Positions 15,168 to 62,689 of a DNA stretch of 64,000 bases are shown here, piece by piece. Positions within the stretch are counted from its first letter, which is position 1, and the number at the start of each line of letters is the position of its first letter. Below the pieces are notes generated by a model. That model did not search any database. It saw only the letters and a program-made list of their open reading frames with translations, and was not told the origin of the DNA. Made by a program: the position numbers and the translations under genes. The stretch spans positions 5,298 to 69,297 of the forward strand of contig JBDREN010000083.1 of the NCBI GenBank assembly GCA_043819795.1. Direction: 5' to 3'. The stretch comes from Elusimicrobiota bacterium. GTDB taxonomy: Bacteria; Elusimicrobiota; Elusimicrobia; UBA1565.

Positions 15168-18100
15168 ATGCGGCGGACCAATGGGCCCAGGTGGGTTCTA
15201 CTCGCGGCCTGCGCGTTGAGCCTCCAGGGCGCCGCCCGCGCCGGGACCGGTCCCCGTCCCTCTCCGAAGAGACTCCAGGAAGAGAAGCTGCCCGGCGCCA
15301 TCGTCGCGAGGCTCCCTGTTCCCGCCGCCTTCGCGTCTCCGGGGGCCCCGGCTTCGACGCTCTCCTCTCCGGCGGTCCTGCTCGCGCGGGAGATCGATGA
15401 GCTGTTCGCCGGCCTGAGCAGTGAGACCAACGACGGCACGCGGGCTCTCCGCCAGCCGGCTCCGGAAAAAGCCCCGCCCCGGGGAACCGGCTCCGGACGG
15501 CTTTCGTCGCGATCGTCTCCCGCGGCGGGAACGCGCGAGCCCGCCGAGGTTTTCGCCGCCCTGGACCGACGGCTCTCCGACATCCGCGCCCGGATCATCG
15601 ATACGATCGACGATCCCGAGGAGGTCGCGATCCTCCTGGCCCGCGTCGACCGGATCCGTGGCGTCCTGGCCAAGCTCCGGAGGGCCGGGGAAACGGGCCA
15701 AGCCCGTTCCCTGTCCGGGGCGATGGCCGGACTGGCGCGGGCCCTCGGGCGGGGGACCGATGACGAGAACCTCTCCAGGTTCGAGACCCTGGTCGACCGC
15801 CTGATGCAAGCGCGGTCGCTGCCCCCCGACCGGCTCGGAACGATCTTCGACAACACGCCCGAGTTCCCGGACAGCGATGTTCTCGCCCCCGTCCCGGCGG
15901 AGGGCTTCAAGGCCCGGGCCCCGCGAGCAAGGGCGAGCGGAGCGGGCGTTTCGCAAGCGGCCCTGTTGGACATCGACCGCTACCCACGGCCCCTGACCGG
16001 GATCCGTGTCGACGGCGGCGTCGTTCCGAAGCCGAGAGGGCCGGGAACCTCGGCCAAGGCCGAGCCGGAGTCCGAGGTCGGCCGCCCACAGCGACGAGCG
16101 GTCACCGCTTCGCAGGGGCTTGAGCGCTCGGCTGTCGCGGCGCTCTCGCCCTTCGCGGGACTGAGCCCGAAAGGCCGCCAGGACCTGTTCCGAAAGGACC
16201 GGGCCGCTCTCAGGCGGGAGCTGCTCGCCGTCGGACTCCGGGCGCTCGAGGAGGGCGACGCGGAGCTCGAGCCGTATCGGGAGGATCTGGACGCCGCGGA
16301 CGGAAGGCTCTCCGGGATGCGTAAAGCGCTGCTGGCCCGGCTCGGGTTCGATGCGCCCCCGCACAACGACCAGGAGCGCAGCGGGCGGTTCGCGACTCTC
16401 ACGAAAGAAGCCCCCCATCTGTCTCTCTATTTCGCGCGGCGCGGGATTTACCAGATGCGCATGCGGCAGGCCCACGGCGAGCATGCCGTGCCGCCGGAGA
16501 CGCGCTTCGCACCCTGGGAACTCGGCATCGAGGACGGCAGCGAGAAAGCCGTCGTCTACGCTACGGCCAAGGACGGCGACCGCACGTTCTACGGGCTGCG
16601 CCGGGAGTTCCAGGACGGCTCCTCGCGCTTCGCGGCGACCGACGGAGCGGAGGGGCTGGTCGTCGTGGTGTCCCCCTCCGATAGCCGCGAGATCCGCACG
16701 CGTATCCGTTTCGACGACCAGGGCCGGCCGGATCGCACCCGGACCTCGATCATCGACACGGGGACCGGCAAGAGGATCCGGGAGGAGATCGCCGACATCG
16801 CGCGGGCGCTCACGCGCTTCGTCGATTACGATCAAGCCGGCGACGCGGTGAGGGTCCTGACCCTGGACAGCGGCACCGGCGAGCAGGTGGTGGAGGACCG
16901 CCGGCAGGGCCGCCGCGTCGCGACCGACAAAGACGGAAAGGTCACGATCACGCCGATCCGAGGCGGAGCCCAAGCCTGGCAGCAGCAGGGCCGGCTCGAT
17001 GAGAGCGGCCGCTTCATCCTCGACCGCCTGGTGCGCGAAGACGGCAGCGTCGTCGAGCGCGTCAGCCCGCACGTCCTGAAGATATCGCGAGACGGCAAGG
17101 CGCAGGGCTATGAGATCGTCGTCGACTCCATCTTCCATGGCGCCCGGGGGCCTGAGCGCGAAGCGGAGTCCTCCAGGATCGCCCGCGAGATCATCGCGGC
17201 GCTCGGCTACCAGGACAAAGACGACCGGCGCTCGCGCCCCCTTAGCAACTGGCTCTCCGACACCTGGACGAAGGACGAGCGGACGCGCGGCGTCGCGATG
17301 ACGGTCGATCCGCGCGGAAGGTTCCAGGTCGTCTACAGCTACAAAGACGGGACCAAGCGCATCGAGCGCGCCAAGTACGGCCTTTCGACCTCGTACGGCG
17401 ACGGGAAGCGGGAGCTCGCGCTCGTGACGCTGAGGCCGGTCCATACCGACCGCCAGGGCCGGGCGCGGCTGGACCCCCGGCGCTACCGCGAGTACCTGGC
17501 CGGCGGCGGCTACAACCAGTGGCATTCCACTTTCGAGTTCAAGAAGGCCGGCTGGTTCTCGAACGCGAAGACGATCGAGCACGTCTCCCTCATCCGCTAC
17601 GGCCGGGACGGAAGCCTTCCACGCCTGGGTCCCGGGAGCGGGGGCGAGCGGGACGGAGACTCCGGCAGCGGCCGCTGGACGGAACGCGGCCGGGAGAAGA
17701 AGGACGAATTCGTCAATGAGGTCGGCGGGACATCGACCTTCGGCATCGTGGGGACCGCGATCCATGAGGCGCCGGTGGTCGGGGACGTCCTGCAGGCCGG
17801 CGGAGCGGTCGGAAAGACGCTCTGGACGGGCATCATGGCGGCTCCGCCCACCTTCATCTATGCGGTCACCAAGGACACGGATTACGGCCTCGCCATGTCG
17901 GGAAGCTACGCGAAGAACCCCCTGGTGAACCGTCTGGTGGGAGACCAGGGACACCTCGACCGCATGGACGGCAAGATGTGGGAGGTCGTCCTTATCGAGG
18001 CCCGCGAAAACCGCCGAAAAGACCTCGATCAGATGGGCTACACCGAGGGGAATACGGACCCGGAGGAGCATCAGCGTTTGCTCTCCCAATGGCGCGGAGA

Positions 18101-24305: not shown

Positions 24306-25730
24306 GTGCCGAAGCCGGAACCGACACCGCGGCCGGAGACCCCGCCCATAGCGGGACGGAAGCCTTCAACGCCTGGGCCCCGCGAGCGAGGGCGAGCGGG
24401 ACGGACGCGCCGGCTGCTGGCCTTCGCGTTGCTCGCCGGGGCGTTGGCGCGCTTCGCAACGGCATTCCTCTATTGGGAAGCGCCGCTCAGCCCGGGCGGC
24501 GATGACCTCCAGTACCATGAGCTGGCCTCCGGGATCGCTTCCGGGCGGGGATACCTCCTGCAGGACGAGCCGAGCGCCTACCGCGGCCCTCTCTACCCCC
24601 TCTTTCTGGCGGCGGCCATGCGGGTGACGGCCAGCGACGCGCCCGGCGTCCTCCGGCTCATCCAGGCGATCCTGGGCCTGCTGGCCCTCTGGCTCGTCTA
24701 CCGTCTAGGCGCGGCCATCCATTCCCCCGAGGCGGGCGCCTGGGCGGCGATGCTCATGGCTCTCTATCCGGAGCAAGTCCTGCTCCCGACGTCGCTCTAC
24801 ACCGAATGCTTCTACGCCTTGATCCTGCTCGTCGTGGCGTGGGCGCTCGCATGCTGGCGGCAAGACCCCCGGCCGGCGCGGCTCGCGGGGCTCGGCGCCG
24901 CGATCGGCCTGAGCCTGCTGACGCGTTCGACGCTGGCGGCCTTGCCCGTCCTGCTCGCGGCTTGGCGGCTCGCGGAGCTCCGCGCCGGACGACGGTGGCT
25001 GCGGGAAACCGCCCTTCTCGCCGTGACCGTTCTGCTGCCGCTCACGCCCTGGATCGTCCGCAACTACGCGCGTTTCGGCAGGGTCATCCCCATGGAGACC
25101 GGCGTCGCCGGTCCCGCGTTATGGTACGCCTCCAAGGGCTGGGTCACGGCGCCCTCGGACATGTCCAGCGTGGAGCCGATGAGGACGATGTACCGGAGGC
25201 TTCCGCATACCGAGTGGGACCGCTTCGCGACGCCGCGAGCCCTGCGCAACATGCGGGCCCGCCCGATGGCGTATCTTCTCGGATGCGCGAAGAGGGCTCT
25301 CTACCTTTGGACCACCGCATACACCCCCTACCTGCTCTACTACCACCACCGCCTCTCGGCGTGGATGCAGAGCGGCGGCCGCTGGAGCTGGATCGCCCTG
25401 GGCGACTGGCTCCTTCGGCTCTGCCTGATCCTGCCGGGGGCCTGGGTACTGCTCCGCAGCGCGCGAAAACGCGGCGGAAGCCTTCAGCGCCTGGGCCCCG
25501 CACCGGCCTCCAACGCAAATCCAAAGGGAGGCCGGCACGGCGCCCCTACCGGGGTGGACGCCGCGAGCACGGGCGAGCGGGGGCTTTGGGCGGTGGCCGG
25601 TTTGGTCCTATACTTCCACATCCACGTCTTCGCGACGGTCTTCGTCCGCTACATGGCGCCGGTGACGCCCCTGCTGTGCGTCCTGGCCGGGGCGGGGTGG
25701 GCCGAGTGGCGAGCCTCGCGCCGAGGCTAA
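24306..25730 (+). CDS. GT-C family membrane glycosyltransferase (ArnT/PMT-like, GT83-type); start uncertain (GTG), N- and C-terminal regions each carry a copy of the 45-nt repeat
   Basis: Multiple TM helices, motif LSPGGDDLQYHELASGIASGRGY; repeat copies at 24353-24406 and 25474-25583 in frame. Confidence 0.7.
   Translation: MPKPEPTPRPETPPIAGRKPSTPGPRERGRAGRTRRLLAFALLAGALARFATAFLYWEAPLSPGGDDLQYHELASGIASGRGYLLQDEPSAYRGPLYPLFLAAAMRVTASDAPGVLRLIQAILGLLALWLVYRLGAAIHSPEAGAWAAMLMALYPEQVLLPTSLYTECFYALILLVVAWALACWRQDPRPARLAGLGAAIGLSLLTRSTLAALPVLLAAWRLAELRAGRRWLRETALLAVTVLLPLTPWIVRNYARFGRVIPMETGVAGPALWYASKGWVTAPSDMSSVEPMRTMYRRLPHTEWDRFATPRALRNMRARPMAYLLGCAKRALYLWTTAYTPYLLYYHHRLSAWMQSGGRWSWIALGDWLLRLCLILPGAWVLLRSARKRGGSLQRLGPAPASNANPKGGRHGAPTGVDAASTGERGLWAVAGLVLYFHIHVFATVFVRYMAPVTPLLCVLAGAGWAEWRASRRG
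24353..24406 (+). repeat. 45-nt GC-rich palindromic repeat copy (gggacggaAGCCTTCAACGCCTGGGCCCCGCGAGCGAGGGCGAGCgggacgga), translated as [15 protein letters not shown]
   Basis: Best-conserved exemplar; 8-bp flanking direct repeat GGGACGGA. Confidence 0.65.
25474..25583 (+). repeat. 45-nt repeat copy split by a ~62-nt nested hairpin insertion (CCGGCCTCC..GGAGGCCGG)
   Basis: 5' half ggaagccttcagcgcctgggccccgca and 3' half cgcgagcacgggcgagcggggg separated by insertion. Confidence 0.5.
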
Positions 25731-32600: not shown

Positions 32601-32927
32601 TCGGGCCCGCGGCGTCCCCCCGGGACCGACGCCCTTCGGACCGAAGCGCAGGCTGTGACGCCCCCGGCGGGCGCCGTTGAAGCGCCGTACCGCGGCGCGC
32701 GCCCGCCGAGACCTCCCCACCGCGCGCGTGCGGGGCGGCTCGGGCCGGTCCAGGCCGAAGCGTCCGGCGTCGTCGCGATGATGCGGCTCCGGACGCACGG
32801 CGAACGCGGCGCGGGCGCCGCCCGCCATGAGCAGCGCGGCCAACGCCCCGGAAGTCATCAACACACGGGCCCCGCGAGCCGGGGCTCGCGGGGAGACCGC
32901 CGGAGGCCTGGATACCCGGCGCATCAC
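29637..32927 (-). CDS. secreted zinc metalloprotease (fungalysin/thermolysin-like, HEYVHFV) with C-terminal T9SS-type sorting domain (ends KKVIVVK)
   Basis: HExxH motif VRHEYVHFV; propeptide-like N-terminus; C-terminal ~80 aa matches Por secretion CTD pattern (FNPSRGEFTTIRYEI...GIYLLNLEAPG...KKVIVVK). Alternative start 32858. Confidence 0.75.
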   Translation of the reverse strand: MMRRVSRPPAVSPRAPARGARVLMTSGALAALLMAGGARAAFAVRPEPHHRDDAGRFGLDRPEPPRTRAVGRSRRARAAVRRFNGARRGRHSLRFGPKGVGPGGTPRARVEAREVAVAFLREYGPELGLRADELRLELGRTAGGIHHLLFEQVVEGVPVEFSRVKVHLDEAGAILSLQSSYRPGVRESPVPRLDEAAAALRAAADLGGAAPRPRGGRLVFFPLRGSDAVRLAWRFRVSGRGGGWIYYVDAGSGEILLRYNDLRFQAACASSGTVTGNVYDIDAGTSPLSVRPFKNQRVYVVDSSTFALTDANGFFCSQTAGKIFTSLQGPYVHVANFNVPNAHYDNGGGKWKTFSTPLSSPHPYSNDAVLISTINATPQDAPGAVKLLPVFSSFDVGGIEFFAGDLEITDDDQVAILDADGYPVAGYLGNRGPFNGAAVAGTQLRLRLKSNESGTRNGFDISHSSYLYLTNSPGSSDNATATFTWTTARTFDGTEDEINLFYHINRMHDYFADGPNSADGADIDKPVPVMARAGPGLSNAFYDPLHENLMFGDVGNSLALDASVVRHEYVHFVVDQIYPIINFGQFGAISEALADYFAASSLGNSAIGTYANVGFQSEGALRELDCPSETACVIFPAHWTGAIHDDSRMISQAVWGLRGQLMTQLGAANGQACADGLVFQALFFFPDSFEDFLEAMLEVDKRAAALVAACGGDNLRGGDIVNAFALHNIVLNPPDEDVYEPNNGIQSATDITTAPVISARIYPAADLDYYAFGAAEGLIRLTLTLPQDPGFPGTYRAYSMSLIDSRYEIVRKAGPVIDINPTLGGYCPDTGCRTSSRKVVLEYVSPRSDQYFLVVSAPEGDEYALVTNNNSTEFYGLEAEYSRAGPVASSIVAASFDNDVISFEVRVATFVTSQNYMFHHARLRDHALRVLPGTATDGASPFLTFVSSSNGLGRVSGTLALASGFNERFRAVGTVHLEVFGGNPLGHVQSLGFSPAINLTADRTALTPFNNVFNPSRGEFTTIRYEIQSAGHVRLRLFTRTGRHVLTLIDEFKPAGKGSVDWSGANRLGSRVASGIYLLNLEAPGIRETKKVIVVK

Positions 32928-37415: not shown

Positions 37416-38773
37416 GCCGCGGCGTCCTGCTCGCGGCGTCGTGCGCCTTGGCCGCCGTGGCCGCCGCGGCGCCCCTATCGGGGAGCCGCCCGGAGGGCCC
37501 GCCGGCACGCTCACGCGCTTTTGTGGCAAGCGCGGTACTGCACACTCCGGCGCCGGAAACACCCTCGGCACCGGCCGGTCCCGGCGTCGTTCCGGGGCCG
37601 GGTCCTGTGCCGGGCTCGCCGCCGCGCGCGGCCGCGGCGGAGTCCCTCACCCCCGCGAGCCCGTCGGAACCGATCATCGCGGTGGGCATCGCCCACAGGG
37701 TCCCGAAGATCACGGTGCGTCCGGAGGGCCGATTCTCGGTCATAGACGAGACGACCGGCGAGATGAAGCGGCTCGAGCGCGGACGCGCCTACACGGTCGA
37801 AGCCGACGAGGGAGAGCGCCTCATCCTGGGGCCCTTCCTCTTCTTCGGCCCGACGCGGCTCCTGCCCGGCCGGCCCGAGGAGTATGTCCTGATCGGGGAG
37901 CGCAAGTACCGCGGGAATCTGGTTTTCCGCCCGAATAAAGACGAGACGATCACCGTCATCGATGAGTTGGGCCTCGAAGAATACCTCTACGGGGTCCTGC
38001 CGACGGAGATGAGTCCCGAATGGCCGCTCGAGGCTCTCAAGGCCCAGGCCGTCGTCGCGCGCACCTTCGCGCTCAACAACCTCGGCAAGTACTCTTCCTC
38101 GGGCTACGACCTGACCGACGACTCCCGCAGCCAGATCTACACCGGGATCACGATCGAATCCGTCCGGGTCCGGCGAGCGGTGAAGGAGACGGCCGGCCAA
38201 GTGATCTATTGGCGCGGGAAACGCCTCCCGGTCCACTTTCATTCCTGCTGCGGAGGCCGCACGACCGATCCGGCCTCGGTCTGGGGCCCGTTGCGGACCG
38301 CCGACGCCGGAGAGCGGGGCGCGGCCGAGAGCCCGCGCCCCCTGCGCGGCGTGCGCGATCGCTACTGCCAGGACACGCCGCACTACGGCTGGACGGCGTA
38401 CTTCAGGAAAGACGACATGCTCCGGGCGCTCCAGCGCGGCGGCCACAACGTGGCCACCCTCACGGCGATCAAGCCCGGGCGCCGGACCTCTTCGGGCTAC
38501 CTCCGGTACCTCCGCCTCAAGCTCGACGGCGCCTGGAGACGCGTGGCGGCCAACGACCTGAGGATGTGGCTCGGCCCCGCCGAGCTAAAGAGCACGCGGA
38601 TACGACGGGTGACCCGCCGGCGCAAGGGCTTCGAGTTCGCCGGGCGCGGCTACGGGCACGGCGTCGGCCTGTGCCAGTGGGGAGCCCGCGTCCAGGCCGA
38701 GCGAGGCGGCGGATACCGCGATATCCTGGGATTCTATTTCCCCGGAGCGGAAATCGGCCCGCGGGAGCGCTAG
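37412..38773 (+). CDS. SpoIID/LytB-domain protein (amidase enhancer-like)
   Basis: Signal peptide, proline-rich linker, SpoIID motifs [39 protein letters not shown]. Confidence 0.75.
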
Positions 38774-38774
38774 C

Positions 38775-38825
38775 CACGGAAACCTTCAACGAGCGGACCC
38801 CGCGAGCGAAGGCCGGCGAGACGGA
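38775..38825 (+). repeat. 45-nt GC palindromic repeat, divergent copy 1 of tandem pair in spoIID-queA spacer
   Basis: cacggaaaccttcaacgagcggaccccgcgagcgaaggccggcgagacgga. Confidence 0.5.
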
Positions 38826-38829
38826 GGCC

Positions 38830-38888
38830 GGGACGGAAGCCTTCAACGCCTGGGTCCCGCGAGCAAGGGCCAGCGAAGCGCGGTCCCG
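38830..38888 (+). repeat. 45-nt GC palindromic repeat, copy 2 of tandem pair
   Basis: gggacggaagccttcaacgcctgggtcccgcgagcaagggccagcgaagcg. Confidence 0.6.
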
Positions 38889-50719: not shown

Positions 50720-51519
50720 AGCCGAAGCTGAGCGTCATCGTCATCGCCCGCGACGAGGAGCGAGACCTGCCGGCCTGCCTCGAGAGCGTGCGGGGCCTCG
50801 ACGCCGAGATCATCGTCCTGGACAGCGGCTCGACCGACCGCACGCGCGAGATCGCCCGCCGGTTCACGCCCCATGTCTTCCAGCAGCCCTTCCGGGACTT
50901 CGGCTCCCAGAAACAGTCGGCCTTGGAACGCGCCTCGGGCGAATGGGTCCTCTCTATCGACGCCGACGAACGCCTGAGCGGCGAGCTGCGCCTGGAGATC
51001 GCCCGCCTGATCGAGTCCCCCCCGGGCGGCGTCTCCGGCTACGACATCCCTTTCGAGGTCCACTTCATGGGCCGCCGCCTCCGGTTCGGCGGCCTGGGCC
51101 GGGAGCGGCACCTGCGCCTGTTCCGGCGCGGGGCCGGGGTCTTCACCGGAAACCACCTTCACGAGGGCGTCTCCGTCACGGGGGCGACGGCGCGCGCGGG
51201 CGCGCCGATCCGGCACATCCCCTACCGGGACCTCGACGACTATCTGGGGAAGCTGCGCGTCTACACGACCCGGGCCGCCCGCAAGAGATTCGACCAGGGG
51301 CGGAGGTTCCACCCGCTCCACCACCTGCTGCCGCTTTGGGAGTTCTTCCTGCGCGTCGTGGTGAGGCTCGGGATGCTGGACGGGACCCCCGGCCTGCTTT
51401 GGGCGGGGCTCTCTTCGTTCCATACGTGGATCAAATACGTGAAGCTGCGCGAGATCGCGGAGGAGCCCGGAAGCCTTCCACGCCTGGGTCCCGCGAGCAA
51501 GGGCGAGAGGAAGCGGTGA
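50716..51519 (+). CDS. glycosyltransferase family 2; C-terminal 15 aa encoded by a copy of the 45-nt repeat (51468-51514)
   Basis: SVIVIARDEERDLPACLESV...DADE; C-terminus PGSLPRLGPASKGERKR. Confidence 0.8.
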   Translation: MKPKLSVIVIARDEERDLPACLESVRGLDAEIIVLDSGSTDRTREIARRFTPHVFQQPFRDFGSQKQSALERASGEWVLSIDADERLSGELRLEIARLIESPPGGVSGYDIPFEVHFMGRRLRFGGLGRERHLRLFRRGAGVFTGNHLHEGVSVTGATARAGAPIRHIPYRDLDDYLGKLRVYTTRAARKRFDQGRRFHPLHHLLPLWEFFLRVVVRLGMLDGTPGLLWAGLSSFHTWIKYVKLREIAEEPGSLPRLGPASKGERKR

Positions 51520-54558: not shown

Positions 54559-55169
54559 GACCCAGATCACCCCGAAAGCCGTCCCCCCGTACCGGGGCCG
54601 CGCCCCGCTCGCCCGTGGTATTCCTGGACCGCGACGGCACAATCATCCACGACCGGCCGGGGTTCTACCTCAAGCGGCCGGAGCAGTTGCGCCTCTACGC
54701 CAGCACCCCGCCGGCGCTGCGACTGCTTCGCGACGCCGGTTACCGCCTCGTCGTGCTCTCCAATCAGAGCGGCATCGGCCGCGGCTTCCTCGACCACGCG
54801 ACGCTGGCGCGCATCCATCGCCGGTTGCTGAGCGCGTTGCGCCGCCGCGGAGCGGACCTCGACGCGATCTACTTCTGCCCGCACCATCCCGCCGACGGGT
54901 GCCGCTGCCGCAAGCCCTCGCCGGTGCTGGCCCGACGGGCCCTCCGGGAGAACCACATCACGCTCAGGGGTTCCGTCGTCGTCGGCGACAAGAAGGCGGA
55001 CATCGACCTGGCGCGCGCGATCGGCATCCCGTCGGTGCTGCTCAAGACCGGCCACGGCCGGGAGCAGCGCGCCATGTTCGGGCGAAGACTGAGGCCGACC
55101 CACGTGGCGCGCGACATCCTAGGCGCCGCTCGATGGATATTGAAGTCCGTGCCGAGGCCCCCGCGGTGA
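54555..55169 (+). CDS. gmhB: D-glycero-D-manno-heptose 1,7-bisphosphate phosphatase
   Basis: FLDRDGTI, HAD motifs, zinc site CRCRKP; ATGA overlap. Confidence 0.85.
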   Translation: MRPRSPRKPSPRTGAAPRSPVVFLDRDGTIIHDRPGFYLKRPEQLRLYASTPPALRLLRDAGYRLVVLSNQSGIGRGFLDHATLARIHRRLLSALRRRGADLDAIYFCPHHPADGCRCRKPSPVLARRALRENHITLRGSVVVGDKKADIDLARAIGIPSVLLKTGHGREQRAMFGRRLRPTHVARDILGAARWILKSVPRPPR

Positions 55170-55197: not shown

Positions 55198-56037
55198 ATG
55201 AGGCTTGGCTGGCTGGGACTGGCTCTGCTGATCCCCTCGGCGGCCGGGGCCGAGCCCTCATTGCCCCACGGCGAGCCGGTGCGGATCACGAGCGACACGG
55301 TCCCGTCCCCATACGCCCTCATCGCCGGCACCCTGCCCTACTCGTCGGAGTACGCCCAGGTCCCCTGGTTCCCCGAGTCCCTCGAGTTCGAGGTCAAATG
55401 GGGCGTGTTCTCCATGGGGTTCGCGACCATGGAGTCCAAGAGGATCGTGGATTTCGGGGGCCAGCCCGCCTTCGAGATCGTGTCCACGGCGAGATCGAAC
55501 CGGTTCGCGGACAGCTTCTACCAGGTCCGCGACATCAACGAATCCTGGATCCGAGCACGCGACCTGAGCTCTCTGGGATACTCGAAGAAGCTGCGCGAAG
55601 GGAAGTTCTTCCGCGACGAGTGGGTCCTCTTCGACTACGGCCGCAAGAGCTTCCTGTCCAAGCGCGTCAACCGCGACGGCAGCTTCAGCCATAGCGCGGG
55701 GGACATACCCGGCACGGTCCAGGACATCCTTTCGAGCATGTACTATATCCGCCCCCGCCGCCTCGAAGTGGGCGATGAGATCACGCTGGACGTCAACACG
55801 AAGGAGAACTGGCCGCTGGTGATCAAGGTCCTGCGCAAGGCCACGGTCCAGGTCCCGGCCGGACGCTTCCGGACTGTCGTCGTCGAGCCGTTCCTCCGGA
55901 AGGAGGGCATCTTCATCCAGAAGGGCAAGAGGATGCGCGTCTGGGTCACCGACGACGAGCGCCACATCCCGGTCCTCCTGAAGGTGGAGATCGTCTTCGG
56001 CCACATCTCCGCTTATCTCACCAAGATCGACCGCTGA
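55198..56037 (+). CDS. DUF3108-like secreted protein (frequent in LPS clusters)
   Basis: Signal peptide; family call from memory of architecture. Confidence 0.55.
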   Translation: MRLGWLGLALLIPSAAGAEPSLPHGEPVRITSDTVPSPYALIAGTLPYSSEYAQVPWFPESLEFEVKWGVFSMGFATMESKRIVDFGGQPAFEIVSTARSNRFADSFYQVRDINESWIRARDLSSLGYSKKLREGKFFRDEWVLFDYGRKSFLSKRVNRDGSFSHSAGDIPGTVQDILSSMYYIRPRRLEVGDEITLDVNTKENWPLVIKVLRKATVQVPAGRFRTVVVEPFLRKEGIFIQKGKRMRVWVTDDERHIPVLLKVEIVFGHISAYLTKIDR

Positions 56038-58094
56038 TGCCGCCCGCGGCCCTCCGGCGCCTGAAAGAGCCGGCGATCGTGCTCCTGATCCTGGCGGCGG
56101 CGATCGCCGTCGTCTACGCCGTCGTCCTGGGAGCGCCCGTCGTATACGACGACGACGTCCTGGTCCGGGGGAACCCGGCGTTCCTCCTCCCGCCGGCGGA
56201 GTTCTGGAGCCGCCTTTGGTCGCTCGACTATTTCGCGTTCACGCAGGAGCGCTCTTACCAGCCGCTCGTGACGCTGCTGCACTACCCGCTCTTCCGGCTG
56301 CCCTGGGCGTACCGGAGCCTGGGACTGGCTCTGCACGCGGCCAACGGCCTGCTCGTCTACGCGATCGGCCGCCGGCTCGCGTTCGGCTCCGGCCAAGCGC
56401 TGGCCGCGGCGCTCCTGTTCGCGCTGTTCCCGGCGTCCACTGAGGCCCTCAACATCTCGTCGTTCAAGGGCCACCCGCTCGCGCTCGCGTTCTCCCTGAG
56501 CACGCTGCTCGCCTGGATGCGAACCGGCGAACGGCCTTCGGCCCCGGCCCCGCTCGCCCCCGCTCGCGGGGCCCAGAAATTGAAGGCTTCCGCCCCGCTT
56601 CTCCTCGCCCATCTTTCGCTCGTCTTCGCCCTGCTGTCCAAAGAGACCGGGCTCATCGCCCCGGCGCTCGTCGTCGTCCACGCGCTGTGCTATCTGCGCG
56701 GGCGGCCGCGGGCGGCTCTCTGGCGCGCTTCGGGCCTGCTGGCGCTCAGCGCCCTCTATCTTTGGTTCCGCTTCGGGCTGCTCCCGCCGCCCCCTTCCCT
56801 GGCGCCCGGGGAACGTGCCGTCGCGACGCTCTGGCTCCCCTGGGAGTCCTTCGGCTGGTACTTAAAGACCCTGATCGCGCCGCTGCCCCTCTGCCTGGAG
56901 CATTCCCTGGACCACGGGCCCTCGGCGACGGCCCGTGCCGGGGCCGCCTTCCGCATGCTCTTGCCCGCGCTCTACGCCTTGCTGCTGTGGCGCTGGCGGC
57001 GCCGGTCCGACAGGCTCTTTTTGCTGCTCTGGATACTCGCCGCCACGCTCCCCTTCCTGCACCTGATCCCGTTCTCCAACTACAGCCCGGTCGCCGACCG
57101 CTACCTCTACGCGGCCTCGGCCGGTCTCTCGCTTCTGGCGGTCCGCGGTCTCTGGGACACGCGCATGAGGGCCGCCCTCCTGGCCGTCGCGCTCGCCTGG
57201 GGCGCGCTTTCCATCGCCCGCAACGCCCTGTATAGGGACACCCGCGCCCTCTACGAGCAGACCGCCGCGTGCGCTCCCGGCAACCCGCGCGCGCACGCCC
57301 TGCTGGCGGGCTGGCACTACAGCGCGGGGCGCGATTATCCCGCGGCGCTCGAGGGCTTCCGCCGGGCCTTCGCCTTGGCCCCGGAGCTCTTGTCCCACTT
57401 CCGCGACCCGGGACTCGTGCATGCGCAGCGCCCCTCGTATATCCTCGGGCTGATCCATCACCGGATGGGCGACGAAGACCGGGCCGCCGAGCTGCTCGAG
57501 CGGGCGCTGGGAGCCGAAAGCCGGCCCCTCGCCCGCGCCGCCCTCCATGAGAAGCTGGGCGACGTCCACGGGGCGCGGGGGGACCTCTCCCGGGCGCTGG
57601 CCGAATACCGGGCCGCGCGCGCCATCCTGCCGCACTGGGGATTGCCGTACCTCAAAGAGGGCCTCGCGCTCCAGACGAGCCAGCCCGCGCGTGCTCTGGC
57701 TCTCATGGAGCGCTCCCGCGCCCTGACCCCGGACCACGACGAGCCCCACCGCCGCCTGCAGGCCAGGATCGACCGGCTGCTCGGGGACGCCTATCTGGCG
57801 CAAGGGATGCCCGAGAGGGCCGTTCGCGCCTGGGAGTCGGCCGAAGCCAAGGTCCCGGGCCGACTGGACCTCCTGCTCCACCTAGCCGACACCTACCGGA
57901 GCATCGGGGATCGATCGGCTTCCGCTTCGGCCTACCGCCGCGCCCTGGCCGCGGCGGACCGGACCCTCGCCCGGCTTCGCCGGCTTCCGGAGGCCGGCGC
58001 CGGCACGGCTGAGTCGGAGAGGCTCATCTCCTCCGTGCGCCGGCAGGCGCGGAAGGCGGAGGCGGCGCTCCGAGAGCTCGAATCGGCCCCCTGA
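56037..58094 (+). CDS. TMTC/PMT_2-like GT-C membrane glycosyltransferase with C-terminal TPR repeats; carries in-frame inverted copy of 45-nt repeat (56546-56596)
   Basis: N-terminal VVYDDDVLVRGNP motif, ~10 TM helices, TPR-like C-terminal half. Confidence 0.65.
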   Translation: MPPAALRRLKEPAIVLLILAAAIAVVYAVVLGAPVVYDDDVLVRGNPAFLLPPAEFWSRLWSLDYFAFTQERSYQPLVTLLHYPLFRLPWAYRSLGLALHAANGLLVYAIGRRLAFGSGQALAAALLFALFPASTEALNISSFKGHPLALAFSLSTLLAWMRTGERPSAPAPLAPARGAQKLKASAPLLLAHLSLVFALLSKETGLIAPALVVVHALCYLRGRPRAALWRASGLLALSALYLWFRFGLLPPPPSLAPGERAVATLWLPWESFGWYLKTLIAPLPLCLEHSLDHGPSATARAGAAFRMLLPALYALLLWRWRRRSDRLFLLLWILAATLPFLHLIPFSNYSPVADRYLYAASAGLSLLAVRGLWDTRMRAALLAVALAWGALSIARNALYRDTRALYEQTAACAPGNPRAHALLAGWHYSAGRDYPAALEGFRRAFALAPELLSHFRDPGLVHAQRPSYILGLIHHRMGDEDRAAELLERALGAESRPLARAALHEKLGDVHGARGDLSRALAEYRAARAILPHWGLPYLKEGLALQTSQPARALALMERSRALTPDHDEPHRRLQARIDRLLGDAYLAQGMPERAVRAWESAEAKVPGRLDLLLHLADTYRSIGDRSASASAYRRALAAADRTLARLRRLPEAGAGTAESERLISSVRRQARKAEAALRELESAP
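56546..56596 (-). repeat. 45-nt GC palindromic repeat copy (inverted orientation), in-frame within TMTC-like gene ([17 protein letters not shown])
   Basis: ccgctcgcccccgctcgcggggcccagaaattgaaggcttccg. Confidence 0.6.
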
Positions 58095-58127
58095 TGATTC
58101 CTATTTGATATAATTTTGCTGGAAAAC

Positions 58128-59234
58128 ACGATGAAACCCTCCCGCCCGTCGCTCAAACGCCTGCTTTCCATCCTGGCGCGATTCCGCCGGAGACGAGTGC
58201 TCGTTCTCGGCGATCTGATGCTCGACCATTTCGTTCGGGGACGCGTGAACCGCCTCTCGCCCGAGGCGCCGGTGCCGGTCGTCGCCGTCGACGAGGAGAC
58301 CCATATGCCGGGAGGGGCCGGCAACGTCTGCAGCAACCTTAGCGCCCTCGGCGCGGCCGTCTCGGTGTTCGGCGTGCTCGGCGACGACGCGGCCGGCGGC
58401 CAGCTGATCCGGGACCTCCAGGCCAGAGGCGTGGACACCGGAGGCGTCGTGCTCGACGCCTTGCGCGTGACGACGCAGAAGTGCCGCATCGTCGCGGAGC
58501 ACCAGCAGGTGGTCCGGTTCGACCGGGAGACCCCTCGCGTGCTCTCCGCGCAGACGCAGTCGAAGCTCCTCCGGAAGCTGAGCGAGGCGATGAGCGGGGC
58601 CGACGCGGTGGTGGTTTCCGATTACGGAAAAGGCGTCGTCACGGCGAACGCCGTGCGTAAGGCGCTGCGGGCGGCGCACCGCGCCCGGCTGCCGGTCGTC
58701 GTCGACCCGAAGGTGGAGCACTTCCGCCGCTATAAGGGAGTCGACTGCATCACGCCGAACCTCCAGGAGGCGTGGGGCGGCATGGGACTGCACCCCTCCC
58801 AGGACGAGGCCGCCATCCACCGGCTCGGCCGCCGCATCCTGGCGGCCCTCCGCGTGCGCTCCGTGCTGATTACCCGGGCGGAGAAGGGCATGACCCTCTT
58901 CGCGGCGAACGATCCGGGGCCGATCTTGCCGTCGCGCACGCGCGGGGCGGAAGCCCTCGACACCCGGGCCCCGCGAGCAAGGGCGCGCGGGGCGGGCAAG
59001 ATCGTCGTCGACCACATCCCGACCCAAGCCAAGGAGGTCTACGACGTGACCGGAGCCGGGGACACCGTCGTCAGCGTGCTGTCTCTGGCGCTCGCCTCAG
59101 GCGCCCGCCTCTATGAGGCGGCCGTTCTGGCGAACCTGGCGGCGAGCATCGTCGTGGGCAAGCTAGGGACCGCCACCATCTCCGCCGACGAGATCAAGCG
59201 GGCGGTCCGCGAATCCGGCCGGAGGCGCTCGTGA
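58128..59234 (+). CDS. hldA: D-glycero-beta-D-manno-heptose-7-phosphate kinase (RfaE/HldE domain I type, stand-alone) with in-frame 45-nt repeat insertion (58945-58995)
   Basis: RVLVLGDLMLD, PGGAGNV, DPK, VTGAGDTV ribokinase-family motifs. Confidence 0.85.
   Translation, partial: TMKPSRPSLKRLLSILARFRRRRVLVLGDLMLDHFVRGRVNRLSPEAPVPVVAVDEETHMPGGAGNVCSNLSALGAAVSVFGVLGDDAAGGQLIRDLQARGVDTGGVVLDALRVTTQKCRIVAEHQQVVRFDRETPRVLSAQTQSKLLRKLSEAMSGADAVVVSDYGKGVVTANAVRKALRAAHRARLPVVVDPKVEHFRRYKGVDCITPNLQEAWGGMGLHPSQDEAAIHRLGRRILAALRVRSVLITRAEKGMTLFAANDPGPILPSRTRGAEALDTRAPRARARGAGKIVVDHIPTQAKEVYDVTGAGDTVVSVLSLALASGARLYEAAVLANLAASIVVGKLGTATISADEIKRAVRESGRRRS
58945..58995 (+). repeat. 45-nt GC palindromic repeat copy inserted in-frame into heptose kinase (EALDTRAPRARARGAG)
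   Basis: ggcggaagccctcgacacccgggccccgcgagcaagggcgcgcggggcggg. Confidence 0.6.
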
Positions 59235-59397
59235 CCGAGCATAGCGTGGTTTCGGCTGCGTGCCTCAACCATTCCCTCGCGTTTGGCCGCAAACGCTTCG
59301 GTCACAGCAATGGTCGCGTCGATCGCCGTGGGAGGCGACCATGACCGAGCATAGCGCAGGAAATGGTCGCGTCGATCGCCGTGGGAGGCGACCATGA
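59231..59397 (+). repeat. long (114 nt) + short (57 nt) tandem units of SD/start-bearing repeat between hldA and kdsB; GTGA overlap with hldA stop, ATGA between units, ATGA into kdsB
   Basis: Direct comparison with 50606-50719 (4 substitutions) and 12222-12335. Confidence 0.7.
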
Positions 59398-60164
59398 TCC
59401 TAAGGCGCAGCCGCTCGAGAACGCTCGTCGTGATCCCGGCGCGTCACGCCTCGACGCGCCTGCCCGGCAAGGTGCTCAAGCCCCTCGGCGGCATCCCGGT
59501 GGTCGAGTGGGTGCGGCGGTCCGCGATCCGGGCCGACCGCGGACCCGTCGTCGTCGCGACCGACCACCCGGACGTCCTGCACGCCGTCGAGCGTTTCGGC
59601 GGCTCGGCGGTACTCACCTCGGAGCGCTGCTCCTCCGGGACCGATCGCGTCGCCGAGGCGCTGCGGATCGTCGAGGCCGCCCGCGGGCTCCGCTTCCGCG
59701 CCGTCATCAATCTGCAGGGCGACGAGCCGTTCATCCGTCCGGCCACGATCCGCAGGGTCGCGGCCCTGATCGAGAAAGGGGCGGACATCTCGACCGCGGT
59801 CGTCCCGCTCTCCTCGCGGCGCGCGGCCGCCGATCCGAACGTCGTCAAAGCGGCCGTCGCGGCCGACGGACGCTGCCTCTATTTCTCCCGCTCGGCCATC
59901 CCCTTCGCCAACGGCGTGGACCGCCGCCTTTCCTTCCGCCATATCGGCATATACGGCTTCACTCGCGAGGCGCTACGGCGCTTCGTGCGCCTGCGCCCTT
60001 CGCCTCTCGAGCGCGCCGAGCGCCTCGAGCAGCTGCGCGCCCTCGAGGACGGCATGACGATCGTAGCCGCGCGCGTCGCCGATCCCGGCATCGCGATCGA
60101 CACCCCGGCCGATCTTGCGCGCGCGCGCCGGCGATGCCGAGGCAGGACCAAGACACATGGCTAA
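59394..60164 (+). CDS. kdsB: 3-deoxy-manno-octulosonate cytidylyltransferase
   Basis: [17 protein letters not shown]..., LQGDEP. Confidence 0.9.
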
Positions 60165-61785
60165 GTTCATCTTCGTCACCGGCGGCGTCGTCAGCTCCCT
60201 AGGGAAGGGCATCAGCGCGGCCTCGCTGGCCAAGCTCCTGCAGGCCCGGGGCATCAAGGTCACCTGCCTAAAATGCGACCCCTACATAAACGTGGACCCC
60301 GGGACCATGAACCCCTATCAGCACGGGGAGGTCTTCGTGACCGAGGACGGCGCCGAGACCGACCTCGACCTGGGCCATTACGAGCGCTTCCTCAACACCG
60401 ACCTGCACCACACGAACAATTTCACGGCCGGGCAGGTCTACGAGACCGTGATCGCCAAGGAGCGCGCCGGGGAGTTCCTGGGGAACACCGTCCAGGTCAT
60501 CCCGCACATCACCGACGAGATCAAGCATCGCTACCGCCTCGTGGCCAAAGGCCGGGACGTCGTCATCATCGAGGTCGGCGGGACGGTGGGCGACATCGAG
60601 AGCCTCCCCTTCCTGGAGGCGGCGCGGCAGCTCGGCCTCGAAGCCGGGAAAGACAACGTCCTCTACATCCATGTGACGCTTCTGCCGTTCTTGCGCGCCT
60701 CCGAGGAGGTCAAGACGAAGCCGACGCAGCATTCGGTCGGCAAGCTGCGCGAGATCGGCATCAACCCCGACATCATCATCTGCCGGGGCGAAAAGCCCCT
60801 CGCCCCGGAGCTGAAGGCCAAGATCGCGATGTTCTGCAGCGTCCACAAGGATGCCGTCATCGAGGCCCCCGACGTCTCGACGATCTACGAGGTCCCTCTC
60901 GTCTTCCGCCGGCAGGGGCTCGACGAGCAGGTGCTGATGCTGCTGCGGCAGCGCGCCCACACGAAGGATCTCGAGGATTGGAAGAAGCTGGTCGACCGGA
61001 TCAAGAAGCCCGGGGAGGAGGTGCGCATCGCGCTCGCGGGCAAGTACACCGAGATCAAAGACGCCTACAAGTCGGTCCATGAGGCCATCGTTCACGGAGG
61101 CATCGCCAACGACGCCCGGGTGCGCATCCACTACGTCGACACCACCTCCCGGGATCTCGAGGAGACCCTGAAGGATCTCGACGGGGTCCTCGTTCCCGGA
61201 GGCTTCGGCGACCGCGGCATCGACGGCAAGCTGCGCGCGATCCAAATCGCGCGGGAGCGGGAGATCCCGTTCCTCGGGCTCTGTCTCGGGATGCAGCTGG
61301 CCGTCGTCGAGTTCGCCCGGAACGTCCTCAAGCTGGCCGGCGCCAACTCGACCGAATTCGATCCCAAGACGCCCTACCCGGTCATCGACCTGCTCCCCGA
61401 GCAAAAGAACGTCAAAGAGAAGGGCGGGACGATGCGCCTGGGAGCCTACGAGTGCAGCATCAGGAAAGGAAGCTTGGCCCACAAAGCCTACCGGACCGGC
61501 ATGGTCTCGGAGCGCCACCGCCACCGCTTCGAGTTCAATAACAAGTTCCGGAAGCTCGTCGAGGACTCCGGTCTGCTCGTCACCGGGATCTTCGCCTCCA
61601 AGAACCTCGCCGAGATCGTCGAGATGCGCGGGCACCCCTGGTTCCTGGCGTCGCAGTTCCATCCGGAGTTCAAGTCGCGGCCCGAGGAACCCCACCCCCT
61701 ATTCGCCGACTTCGTCGCCGCGGCGCTCGCTCGCTCGCGCGCTCGGCGCCGCCCCGCGCGGAAGGCCCCCCATGCGAAAAGGTAG
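60157..61785 (+). CDS. pyrG: CTP synthase
   Basis: [19 protein letters not shown]..., GATase domain GLCLGMQ, HPEF. Confidence 0.95.
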
Positions 61786-62689
61786 CCCCGCTCGCCCCCG
61801 CTCGCGGGGCCCGGGTGTTGAAGGCTTCCGCCCTGCCCGCGGCGTGCGCATCGGAGCCTTCTCCGTCGGCAACGAACTCCCGCTCTTCTTCATCGCCGGC
61901 GCCTGCGTGCTGGAGTCCAGCGAGCTCCTCTACCGGGTGGGGCGCGCCCTGAAGACCGCTTTCGCCCGCGCCGGAGTCCCCTGGGTGCTGAAATGCAGCT
62001 TCGACAAGGCGAACCGGTCCTCCCTGCGCGGGTTCCGGGGCCCGGGCATGTCGCGGGCGCTCGAGGTATTCGCCCGGGCCAAGAGGGACCTCGGCGTGCC
62101 GTTTCTGACCGATATCCACCAGCCCTCGCAGGCCGAACAGGTGGCGAAGGTCGCCGACATCATCCAGGTCCCGGCGTTCCTCTGCCGGCAGACGGACCTC
62201 CTGGTGGCCGCCGGCAAGACGGGGAAGGCGGTCAACATCAAGAAAGGGCAGTTCCTCTCCCCCTGGGACATGACCAACGCCGTCGAGAAGGTCGCCTCCA
62301 CGGGGAACCGGAAGATCCTGCTCACAGAGCGCGGCACCTCGTTCGGTTACGCCAATCTCGTCGTGGATATGCGCTCGCTCGAGATCATGGGGCGGACAGG
62401 CTGTCCCGTGGTATTCGACGCGACGCACTCCTGCCAGCTTCCCGGCTCGATGGGGACCGCGACCGGCGGGCAACGCCGCTACGCGTGGCTTCTCGCCCGG
62501 GCCGCGGCGGCCGCGGGGGTCGCGGGCATATTCCTGGAGGCCCATCCGGACCCCGCCCGAGCGAAGTCCGACGGGCCGAACTCGCTTTGTCTAAGCGACG
62601 TGCCGGCGTTCGTGCGCAGCGTCACGCCCATAGACCGCCTCGTAAAGACCGGGGCGGCCCGACGCGCGAGGAGGGGCGTCCACCCATGA
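61772..62689 (+). CDS. kdsA: 2-dehydro-3-deoxyphosphooctonate aldolase (Kdo8P synthase); first 24 codons are an inverted 45-nt repeat copy, GTG 61844 may be true start
   Basis: [14 protein letters not shown]...[11 protein letters not shown]...[10 protein letters not shown]. Confidence 0.85.
61786..61836 (-). repeat. 45-nt GC palindromic repeat copy (inverted) at pyrG/kdsA junction
   Basis: ccccgctcgcccccgctcgcggggcccgggtgttgaaggcttccgcc. Confidence 0.6.

Follow-up and report, generated by a model that had tools for sequence, protein, structure and literature searches.

The hldA gene of an Elusimicrobiota bacterium, located in the 64,000-nt stretch of DNA analysed here (the window), probably carries within its coding sequence a copy of a lineage-specific, GC-rich interspersed repeat of about 57 nt, which we call family A. 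Since the length of the insert is a multiple of three and the insert contains no stop codon in the hldA phase, the gene is intact and reads through the element. Further copies of the repeat are scattered over the window, some of them also in frame within unrelated genes (Table 1).

Results

The affected gene is, as judged from its TIGR02198 match, its PfkB fold and its gene neighbourhood, a predicted HldA/RfaE domain I orthologue. Its product was predicted to be a D-glycero-beta-D-manno-heptose-7-phosphate kinase (TIGR02198 rfaE_dom_I, 355.5 bits, curated equivalog-domain cutoff 345), contains the PfkB domain PF00294 (E 3.5e-35), matches HldA of PDB 4e84 with an E value of 5e-51 and is identical to the database protein P0001. 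NCBI names this protein (MFH1724169.1) merely 'PfkB family carbohydrate kinase'. The translation of 58131-59231 (+) includes GMTLFAANDPGPILPSRTRGAEALDTRAPRARARGAGKIVVDHIPTQAKEVYDVTGAGDT. All 95 invariant columns of alignment A1 are kept, D305-T312 included, and the motif DVTGAGDT (anion-hole/catalytic Asp motif, DxTGAGD type) is conserved. The operon has the order waaA, GT9, GT4, GT4, GT2, deacetylase, GT9, lpxK, HAD, DUF3108, hldA, kdsB, pyrG, kdsA, lptC. The LPS inner-core and ADP-heptose genes cluster on the hldA strand (GT9 heptosyltransferases, GmhB-like HAD, lpxK, kdsB, kdsA, waaA and lptC), and the synteny of this LPS-core operon around hldA is common to relatives.

Both the TIGR02198 and the PfkB match of HldA are broken into two by an inserted segment, and the alignments with the profile and with 4e84 are interrupted at residues 260-295. 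A gap of 28 columns lies opposite the insertion in all 20 nearest homologues (alignment A1), and HldA has 367 aa, compared with 283-351 aa in the other proteins among the best 120 matches (the self-match P0001, 100% and 367 aa, was set aside). The insertion comprises about residues 264-290, that is 78-84 nt, a length divisible by three. The empty site was found at the codon level in the syntenic relatives L004, L006 and L008 (GMTLF-EAGNPC-RIHHIPTQA). The closest HldA homologue is 65% identical, and both the insertion event and its edges are read from such distant homologues. The insert shows no codon-position periodicity of GC (0.89/0.83/0.84), which is a non-coding signature, whereas the hldA flank shows the normal GC3 periodicity (0.73/0.51/0.94). 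Sequence comparison confirmed the insertion as real, and it appears to be unique to this HldA among the homologues compared.

A preliminary description of the window had reported a repeat element of 17 residues at 58945-58995, inserted in frame into the ribokinase-fold kinase. The extent of the segment had to be corrected. The segment EALDTRAPRARARGAG consists of 16 residues (274-289, nt 58950-58997), so that the coordinates were off by 2-5 nt, and the insertion relative to homologues in alignment A1 is longer than this segment, with 26-28 residues. The repeat nature and the in-frame position were borne out by the pattern and nhmmer searches described below and by the comparisons with the 20 homologues, the TIGR02198 profile and 4e84. 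Homologues carrying an equivalent segment had been named as evidence that would speak against the claim; none of the 20 nearest ones carries it, and because the insert is absent from these homologues, from TIGR02198 and from 4e84, the claim is not refuted on this ground.

Table 1 Features of the hldA locus and copies of family A in the window
Feature	Position	Strand	Description
hldA	58131..59234	+	367 aa, monofunctional RfaE domain I type; NCBI MFH1724169.1
In-frame insertion versus all homologues	58920..59003	+	26-28 codons, PILPSRTRGAEALDTRAPRARARGAG[KI]; edges uncertain by ~6 nt
Family A unit in hldA	58943..58999	+	57 nt, CGGGRCGGAAGCCTTCAACGCCTGGGYCCCGCGAGCRRGGGCGAGCGGGRCGGAGGC; repeat search, blastn, alignment A2, pattern, nhmmer (E 1.8e-11)
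Conserved 3' hairpin of family A	58968..58993	+	Stem GCCCCGCG / CGCGGGGC, inner 2 bp, tetraloop
Inserted stretch not attributable to the repeat unit	58916..58942	+	About 24-27 nt, encodes ~PILPSRTR
Perfect 10-bp inverted repeat bracketing the insert	58921..58930 (left arm), 58995-59004 (right arm)	+	CGATCTTGCC (left), GGCAAGATCG (right); inverted-repeat search
Family A copy	15893..15947	+	In frame, VPAEGFKARAPRARASGAG; variable region of the 1746-aa ORF 15168-20408; phase as in hldA
Family A copy	17604..17658	+	Clean in-frame 15-19-aa insertion RDGSLPRLGPGSGGERDGD; conserved block of the same 1746-aa protein; alignment A6, four homologues
Family A copy	24352..24406	+	Junction of DUF4254 gene (stop 24293) and PMT_2 gene
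Split family A copy	25470..25581	+	In frame, near 3' end of PMT_2 gene 24306-25730
Family A copy	32844..32895	+	Perfect hairpin; between two minus-strand genes
Two tandem family A units	38772..38885	+	Period 57 nt; begin at stop codon of SpoIID-like gene, upstream of queA
Family A copy	51463..51515	+	Last ~18 codons of GT2 glycosyltransferase gene (50716-51519); alignment A5
Family A copy, reverse	56544..56598	-	In frame, within a loop of the membrane/TPR protein 56037-58094 (685 aa); alignment A3
Family A copy, reverse	61785..61839	-	Right after pyrG stop, within 5' end of annotated kdsA (ATG 61772); alignment A4

The tandem pair 38772/38829 gave the length of the family A unit (57 nt). When the 23 bases that are invariant among the copies were used as a pattern, it matched the 64-kb window 10 times and 100 shuffled sequences not once. 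Searching with nhmmer detected 10 full copies (E 1e-10 to 1e-15) and one split copy, which corresponds to one copy per ~6 kb. The unit has a GC content of ~80%; its 5' head (GGAAGCCTTCAAC) is not palindromic and precedes a GC hairpin of 7-8 bp. Over 10 copies, 86.7% of the hairpin cells are paired, compared with 32-51% in slid controls; covariation for either family A hairpin, assessed in 10 sequences, did not exceed the shuffled controls. No stop codon occurs in the phase used in hldA, and five of the six phases are open. The hldA copy is ~15% diverged from the other copies, the differences found by blastn ranging from 7 to 27%. The sequence GCGGGRCGG is present at both unit termini in direct orientation, and terminal inverted repeats were not found. 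This terminal direct repeat of family A could itself be a site-specific duplication. At 8 of 9 loci the copy edges show no 7-mer direct repeat, and at hldA there is a loose 8/12 match. The search for copy-specific flanking repeats, inverted or direct, at the other family A loci yielded just a 9-nt direct repeat, with its arms 87 nt apart, at 17600/17687. No conserved target motif was identified at the copies compared. The Rfam scan of the whole window gave a single tRNA and no family matching the element, and neither a promoter nor a terminator was found in 58000-59500. Among the ~30 ORFs of the window scanned against Pfam, there was neither a transposase family nor a RAYT gene.

The repeat unit accounts for 57 of the 78-84 nt inserted in hldA. 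Local alignment of the additional stretch at 58916-58942 revealed no significant match to either strand of the element, nor to the right flank. Its origin as a partial or inverted copy of the element or as a target duplication was rejected, since the local alignments were no better than those of shuffled sequences. The 10-bp inverted repeat that brackets the insert closes a multibranch fold of 91-96 nt and is absent at every other family A copy. Together with this flanking repeat, the hldA copy folds better than shuffled sequences (z -2.1 as RNA, -2.9 as DNA). The remaining copies (z -1.6 to +1.0) and the consensus unit as DNA (z +0.9) show no such advantage over shuffled sequences.

At least five of the 11 copies lie within coding sequence, and at least three are inserted cleanly and in frame in the interior of conserved proteins (hldA, the 1746-aa protein and the membrane TPR protein). 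The copy at 17604..17658 is read in a different phase from that in hldA. The membrane/TPR insert spans 23 columns that are absent from the nearest homologue P0122 and adds 13-17 residues relative to the others (A3). Four or five copies are located exactly at gene junctions of operons. The copy 51463..51515 lies directly before the GTGA that joins the GT2 stop to the start of the deacetylase gene, and its translation is included as a tail in the NCBI GT2 protein MFH1724162.1. The annotated KdsA has 305 aa, against 281-286 aa in relatives, and the pyrG/kdsA overlap of 14 nt equals that in L004. The split copy consists of model positions 2-32 and 23-49 with ~53 nt between them. The neighbours of the copy 32844..32895 are a HEAT-repeat gene (stop ~32924) and the start of a gene for an FTP-motif protease-like protein. 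In all, the copies occur in both orientations, eight of the 11 being sense relative to local transcription (a bias of 8:3 that is not significant), and in five reading phases. Family A therefore behaves as DNA and not as a protein module.

Family A is, within the sequences searched, apparently lineage-specific. The exact 26-base consensus pattern had zero matches in public genome and metagenome contigs, and the relaxed pattern of 23 invariant bases found there a single unrelated Opitutae sequence in three records. The Opitutae sequence was rejected as a family member, its likeness being confined to the constrained bases. In the closest relatives, an nhmmer search of syntenic loci amounting to ~84 kb gave nothing below E=1. 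A protein search with concatenated element translations returned one match, the tail of NqrC on another contig of the same MAG, which is a further in-frame family A copy. The window's own proteins were missed by this search, so the census is uninformative on copy number.

The AlphaFold model of HldA has an overall pLDDT of 86.4. Residues 260-290 form a coil, with pLDDT below 50 for residues 266-287, and the insert occupies the turn between strands 254-259 and 291-296 at the tip of a beta-hairpin. Its position upstream of the GAGD motif, as described before, was specified as 18 residues ahead of it. Structure prediction had also been proposed earlier as a check on a surface loop, and the modelled coil agrees with this. 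The rest of the protein superposes on HldA of B. cenocepacia (4e8y_A; Foldseek TMt 0.92, rmsd 2.1). That the loop has a low pLDDT is in part to be expected, as it is covered by none of the aligned sequences.

Discussion

We propose that family A entered hldA at the codons for the turn of the beta-hairpin preceding the DVTGAGD anion-hole strand, where the element would be read as a disordered loop of 26-28 residues rich in Arg, Ala, Gly and Pro. Given the ribokinase-fold topology, the loop would project at that end of the central sheet which is distal to the active site. We infer that the kinase probably stays active despite the loop and that the enzyme would tolerate the insertion. Family A would spread at the DNA level as a selfish or structural repeat, with selection removing the disruptive insertions. 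Such DNA-level spread fits the distribution of the copies, which occupy loops, N- and C-terminal tails and stop/start junctions and occur in five phases and either orientation. We conjecture that the hairpin and the absence of terminal inverted repeats favour a REP-like mechanism dependent on single-strand hairpins over that of a classical MITE.

The repeat could instead be a nucleic-acid motif serving the host, for instance a hairpin for mRNA stabilisation or processing, or a protein-binding site of the REP/BIME type, with the hldA copy regulating the LPS operon. The conserved hairpin, the sense orientation of most copies, the placement of four or five of them exactly at operon junctions and the folding of the hldA copy with its inverted repeat would suit this role. 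We nevertheless regard it as unlikely, since the Rfam scan and the search for terminator and promoter signals were negative, the orientation bias is not significant, the other copies and the consensus fold like shuffled sequences, covariation stays at control level, and syntenic relatives with the same operon have no family A. That hldA is inactivated or crippled, either as a young, undegraded pseudogene or with heptose phosphorylation provided by another gene elsewhere, seems to us rather improbable. The insertion is large and lies within the catalytic domain, the TIGR02198 score is just 10 bits over the cutoff, the NCBI family name is generic, and a second gene copy is possible as our view covers 64 kb of the genome. 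On the other hand, the ORF is intact with every alignment-invariant residue retained, its flanks keep their GC3 periodicity, and the gene holds its conserved operon position beside the GT9 heptosyltransferase, the GmhB-like HAD, kdsB and kdsA. The insert is also modelled outside the fold, at the hairpin tip. Moreover, the divergence of the hldA copy from the others indicates that it is not brand new, yet the gene is otherwise free of lesions.

An artefact of assembly or binning, in which the repeat was wrongly threaded into hldA, is very improbable. The sequence is a MAG contig and repeats commonly cause misassembly, but the 57-nt unit is shorter than a sequencing read and 7-27% different from the other copies, and so is not a collapsed repeat. 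The frame is kept exactly between colinear hldA coding sequences on either side, and further frame-preserving copies in unrelated genes are not expected from random error. We consider it scarcely credible that the insert escapes translation by removal from the message or by ribosome bypassing, as with T4 gene 60 or with the GC clusters of yeast mitochondria known as 'byp' elements. Although this is a structured, GC-rich mobile insert within coding sequence, and the 10-bp inverted repeat would bring both edges of the hldA insert together, this flanking repeat is confined to the hldA copy, and neither a take-off/landing codon pair nor a stop codon is present. All intragenic copies are open in the host frame with lengths that are multiples of three, which is required only if the inserts are translated and thus counts against bypass. 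Several known elements were rejected by eye: an attC site (CTTCAAC resembles an inverse core, but the opposite end lacks a core GTT to match it), a DNA uptake sequence (the element is too long), CRISPR or DGR repeats (the architecture does not fit) and an intein (no intein motifs and 28 aa only). Insertion of a translated, interspersed repeat remains our preferred explanation.

Beyond this, family A and a second family of small repeats, family B (see below), might have a specific adaptation that lets them spread through a gene-dense genome while its genes stay unbroken, a possibility that we regard as doubtful. A unit of exactly 19 codons (57 nt), five open phases out of six and preferred sites in loops, at termini and at stop/start junctions could be read in this way. 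If so, housekeeping proteins would continually gain disordered loops and tails rich in Arg, Ala and Gly, the repeats would be the counterpart of Rickettsia palindromic elements (RPEs) in a GC-rich, free-living bacterium, and hairpin-dependent insertion leaving an inverted target copy, as at hldA, would possibly be a new mechanism.

In-frame fusions created by small repeats have been documented before (PMC10969869; PMC3184786). RPEs (Ogata et al. 2000), in the account summarised in PMC10969869, are AT-rich elements of ~105-150 bp confined to Rickettsia, with a conserved peptide per family. The passages on RPEs in PMC10969869 and PMC3184786 describe them as interspersed, palindrome-containing, non-autonomous repeats, with many copies in frame in unrelated housekeeping and metabolic genes; family A is likewise multi-copy, contains a hairpin and occurs in frame. 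According to the same passages, translation of RPE copies adds peptide segments that are considered compatible with the fold of the host protein; for family A, translation is predicted. Family A differs in its unit length and GC content and in its origin from an Elusimicrobiota MAG, and it has no sequence similarity to RPEs. Because it is read in at least five phases or orientations, it has no conserved peptide, unlike RPEs. Family A thus resembles RPEs in the way it works but does not belong to them.

The copy in hldA adds a new example and a new phylum to a known phenomenon whose best descriptions come from Rickettsia, and in-frame colonisation of essential enzyme genes by tiny repeats is accordingly not confined to reduced intracellular genomes. 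The host here is a high-GC Elusimicrobiota genome, in which a copy occurs about every 6 kb within one LPS operon. Inserts of this kind reduce the scores of profile matches and impair automatic annotation, as in the naming of HldA, and they inflate apparent lineage-specific loops in structure prediction. The locus also offers a natural experiment for protein evolution, in which one DNA sequence supplies, in five reading phases, loops and tails to unrelated proteins. The hairpin tip of HldA is, in the model, a putative insertion-tolerant site in an antibiotic-target enzyme family.

REP/REPIN elements are mobilised by RAYT transposases (Y1 HUH). Family A belongs to a size class similar to that of REPs, which have 21-65 bp (PMC3184786), and shares with them the GC-rich imperfect hairpin, the non-palindromic head, the high copy density, the restriction to a lineage and the lack of terminal inverted repeats; REPs are also without target duplications, and no clear one was identified for family A. 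However, REPs are by definition extragenic and typically arranged as inverted doublets (REPINs; PMC3337134), whereas at least five family A copies are intragenic, no inverted pairs occur and the sole doublet consists of two units in direct tandem. Among bacterial MITEs, in-frame copies within genes are found for ERIC, BOX, Correia and the Anabaena MITEs (PMC10969869). Like family A, they are small non-autonomous repeats that occasionally produce in-frame fusions or C-terminal extensions (PMC10969869), but MITEs end in inverted repeats, show target-site duplications and usually are AT-rich and longer than 100 bp, while family A is without terminal inverted repeats.

MIRUs (Supply et al. 1997) are, as outlined in PMC3184786, GC-rich units of 40-100 bp with internal inverted repeats, located within operons and sometimes in tandem; they carry open reading frames, and their ends overlap the stop and start of the neighbouring genes. 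In these outlined traits, just part of family A resembles them, namely the copies 51463, 38772/38829 (tandem), 24352 and 61785. The same outline presents MIRUs as intergenic Mycobacterium minisatellites, for which internal in-frame insertions in enzyme domains are not given as a hallmark (PMC3184786), and by description MIRUs and family A differ in phylum and consensus. As a separate observation, the small repeats of family B are found at ATGA junctions, where the MIRU-like stop/start overlap is even stronger than in family A.

Results

Extent of the insertion in hldA

The hldA product matches Pfam PfkB (E 3.5e-35) and the NCBIfam equivalog domain TIGR02198 (D-glycero-beta-D-manno-heptose-7-phosphate kinase; 355.5 bits, cutoff 345), and the solved structure closest to it is that of Burkholderia cenocepacia HldA (4e84, E 5e-51). 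The identical protein MFH1724169.1 (Elusimicrobiota MAG) is named at NCBI only 'PfkB family carbohydrate kinase'. The gene lies with heptosyltransferases at its conserved position in the LPS-core operon, the order common to the closest relatives being GT2, deacetylase, GT9, lpxK, HAD/DUF3108, hldA, kdsB, pyrG, kdsA, where stops and starts overlap. Directly 5' of hldA, relatives encode a single fused HAD-like phosphatase–DUF3108 protein of 448-458 aa; here the two are separate ORFs, and a membrane/TPR gene with its own repeat copy sits between DUF3108 and hldA.

The Pfam, TIGR02198 and 4e84 matches are each split in two, residues ~260-295 facing ~3 reference residues. In the alignment of HldA with 20 homologues (A1), a 28-column block between strand GMTLF and strand xHIPTQAxEV(Y/F)DVTGAGDT is missing from 20/20 homologues. 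The top-120 database matches besides the 100% self-match P0001 are 283-351 aa long and at best 65% identical. At the codon level, syntenic relatives read GMTLF-EAGNPC-RIH-HIPTQA or shorter and the window reads GMTLF-AANDPG-PILPSRTRGAEALDTRAPRARARGAG-KIVVD-HIPTQA; the insertion therefore comprises 26-28 codons (~58920-59003). It is unique to this HldA among everything searched, and no equivalent segment was observed among the searched homologues from unrelated taxa. The preliminary description of an in-frame repeat insertion in the kinase is thus supported in its interpretation and corrected in its boundaries: the peptide that it gave as 17 residues, EALDTRAPRARARGAG, counts 16 in translation (residues 274-289, nt 58950-58997), and the insertion exceeds it.

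The family A repeat

Repeat search, blastn and nhmmer showed that a ~55-57-nt sequence occurs in the window in 10 full copies plus a split one, and a pattern of 23 invariant bases matched 10 times there vs 0 in 100 dinucleotide shuffles, which bears out the assignment of the insert to a repeat element (family A; Table). The consensus is CGGGRC-GGAAGCCTTCAACGCCTGGGYCCCGCGAGCRRGGGCGAGCGGGRC-GGAGGC, with a unit length of 57 nt taken from the tandem pair 38772/38829. Its 3' half contains a 7-8-bp GC stem, an internal loop, 2 bp and a tetraloop; pairing holds in 86.7% of cells across copies vs 32-51% in slid controls, and covariation among ten sequences was no higher than in shuffles. Both ends of the unit carry GCGGGRCGG in direct, not inverted, orientation. 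The copies showed neither terminal inverted repeats nor consistent target duplications nor a target motif, no Rfam family matched the element, no transposase was found among ~30 window ORFs scanned against Pfam, and promoter and terminator scans of 58000-59500 were negative. GC at the three codon positions is 0.89/0.83/0.84 in the element vs 0.73/0.51/0.94 in the flanking gene, a loss of periodicity consistent with a non-coding origin.

Of the 78-84 inserted nt, 57 belong to the repeat unit; the stretch of ~27 nt on its left side (58916-58942) showed no significant similarity to element or flank. A perfect 10-bp inverted repeat surrounds the insert (CGATCTTGCC, 58921-58930; GGCAAGATCG, 58995-59004), and none of the other family A copies has a bracketing one. 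The insert edges share a loose 8/12 direct match (GGG CCG ATC TTG vs GGC AAG ATC GTC). These features may be traces left by the insertion. Together with the inverted repeat, the 91-96-nt region adopts a single closed multibranch fold (RNA, -57.2 kcal/mol, z -2.1; DNA, -34.6 kcal/mol, z -2.9).

Copies were placed by GC3 frame analysis, Pfam and homologue alignments. KdsA has 305 aa here vs 281-286 aa in relatives, and in NqrC (MFH1724468.1), encoded on a different contig of this assembly, the C-terminal 16 residues are the element in a third phase. Host frames read family A in five phases/orientations, yielding unrelated peptides, and the sole unused phase is the one containing TGA; such a pattern fits not a protein module but a repeat that acts at the DNA level and is filtered by selection.

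Features in the window
Feature	Position	Strand	Context	Basis
hldA ORF	58116/58131-59234	+	367-aa translation	
Family A	15893	+	1746-aa protein, variable region; phase unlike 17604	
Family A	17604	+	1746-aa protein, clean 15-19-aa insertion in well-conserved block	A6 alignment, four homologues
Family A	24352	+	gene junction	GC3 frame analysis, Pfam
Family A (split)	25470-25581	+	in-frame in PMT_2 gene	
Family A	32844	+	between two minus-strand genes	
Family A	38772, 38829	+	tandem pair, begins at a stop codon	GC3 frame analysis
Family A	51463	+	final ~18 codons of GT2 glycosyltransferase, right before GTGA stop/start junction	A5 homologue alignment
Family A	56544-56598	-	+13-23 residues in loop of 685-aa membrane/TPR protein	A3 homologue alignment
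Family A	58943	+	hldA insert	A1 homologue alignment
Family A	61785-61839	-	just past pyrG stop, within annotated kdsA 5' end	A4 homologue alignment
Family B (~114 nt)	50606-50719	+		
Family B	59231-59397	+		
Family B	12219-12331	-		
HAD-like phosphatase	54555-55169			
DUF3108	55198-56037			
685-aa membrane/TPR gene	56037-58094			
2560-aa ORF	4627-12309	-	HATPase_c domain at C-terminus	
Tandem direct repeats	18689-18925		1746-aa protein; 3 copies, 63-nt period	
Tandem direct repeat	7096-7443		2560-aa protein; 2 x 174 nt	
tRNA gene	34197-34268	-		Rfam

In the split copy, model positions 2-32 and 23-49 lie ~53 nt apart, and the spacer has its own hairpin, CCGGCCTCC...GGAGGCCGG, which suggests another small element nested within. 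The copy at 32849-32893 carries a perfect 11-bp hairpin (CCCCGCGAGCC/GGCTCGCGGGG) and a variant head, GGAAGTCATCAAC, that yields an ATG when read on the opposite strand. This is plausibly the start of a minus-strand FTP-motif protein, since it opens the signal-peptide-like MTSGALAALLMAGGARAAFA.

Family A was found neither by an exact 26-base pattern in 185,579 species-representative genomes or JGI metagenome contigs nor in ~84 kb of syntenic DNA of the closest relatives, and a relaxed invariant pattern recovered only one unrelated Opitutae sequence from the same collections. Family A thus seems to be restricted to its lineage. When the literature was searched for interspersed palindromic repeats in Elusimicrobia, the papers retrieved either concerned CRISPR or were unrelated.

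Predicted structure of HldA

The AlphaFold2 model built on A1 (mean pLDDT 86.4, pTM 0.86) has HldA structures as its top PDB matches (4e8y_A, TMt 0.92, rmsd 2.1 Å), and 95/95 A1-invariant columns are retained, including D305-V-T-G-A-G-D-T312. The insert is modelled as coil (residues 260-290) between strands E254-259 and E291-296, in line with the proposed surface loop. Residues 266-287 have pLDDT < 50, partly as expected for a loop outside the coverage of the aligned sequences; an Arg/Ala/Gly/Pro composition, as in the insert, is typical of disorder. The turn lies ~18 residues ahead of GAGD in the sequence, agreeing with the earlier placement just before this motif. In the ribokinase fold, the antiparallel GMTLF strand heads away from the active site and the following strand comes back, which would place the turn on the sheet side distal to the ATP and sugar sites.

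Discussion

We propose that a lineage-specific, hairpin-containing interspersed repeat of ~57 nt entered hldA in-frame at the tip of a hairpin and that it is read through as a disordered surface loop, the enzyme most likely being still functional. Inactivation of hldA by the insertion is quite unlikely, as the ORF is intact, the conserved residues are present and the operon position is kept. That the insert is an assembly artefact is very improbable: the copies are diverged and below read length, and the frame is preserved repeatedly in unrelated genes. Translational bypass or splicing, by which the insert would be skipped, has next to no probability and is unnecessary because all intragenic copies are open and multiples of three.

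The spread of family A would be selfish in our reading. A host-functional RNA or DNA motif could account for the conserved hairpin, the copies at gene junctions and the 8:3 sense bias, but it is unlikely in view of the lack of covariation and the absence of the family from the relatives searched.

Rickettsia palindromic elements are found within many metabolic genes, in-frame and predicted to be structurally compatible (PMC10969869; PMC3184786). Family A resembles them in its in-frame insertion and functions like them but is not a member, being 57 nt instead of 105-150 bp, GC-rich, from another phylum and without a conserved peptide. It is similar to REPs in size, hairpin and lack of inverted termini, but it is not confined to extragenic DNA, at least 5 of 11 copies being within coding sequence, nor is it arranged in inverted doublets (REPINs; PMC3337134). 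The junction and tandem copies of family A resemble MIRUs, ORF-bearing units of 40-100 bp that overlap neighbouring genes (PMC3184786). MITEs have terminal inverted repeats and target duplications, neither of which was found in family A. It is a small interspersed repeat colonising coding sequence in-frame, an already known phenomenon; it overturns nothing but is, beyond Rickettsia, a clear and dense case that has several oddities open to testing.

Family B and other repeats

The second repeat family, B, begins with TGACCGAGCATAGCG and finishes with GGGAGGCGACCATGA, its plus-strand pair being 96% identical. The upstream gene (a GT4 gene; hldA) terminates at the 5' TGA, and the 3' end provides an SD-like GGGAGG and the ATG of the downstream gene (GT2, 50716; kdsB, 59394; the 2560-aa minus-strand ORF, 12309). 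The gene pairs at these sites overlap by 4 nt in relatives, so family B has the appearance of an element that entered ATGA stop/start overlaps. An 8-bp hairpin (ATGGTCGC/GCGACCAT) formed by its final 36 nt would sequester the start codon.

Diverged internal direct repeats (many of the repeat-search families D3-D18) fill the 2560-aa ORF, which looks like a giant coiled-coil-like protein of the histidine kinase type. The tRNA gene was the sole match in the window at the Rfam gathering threshold.
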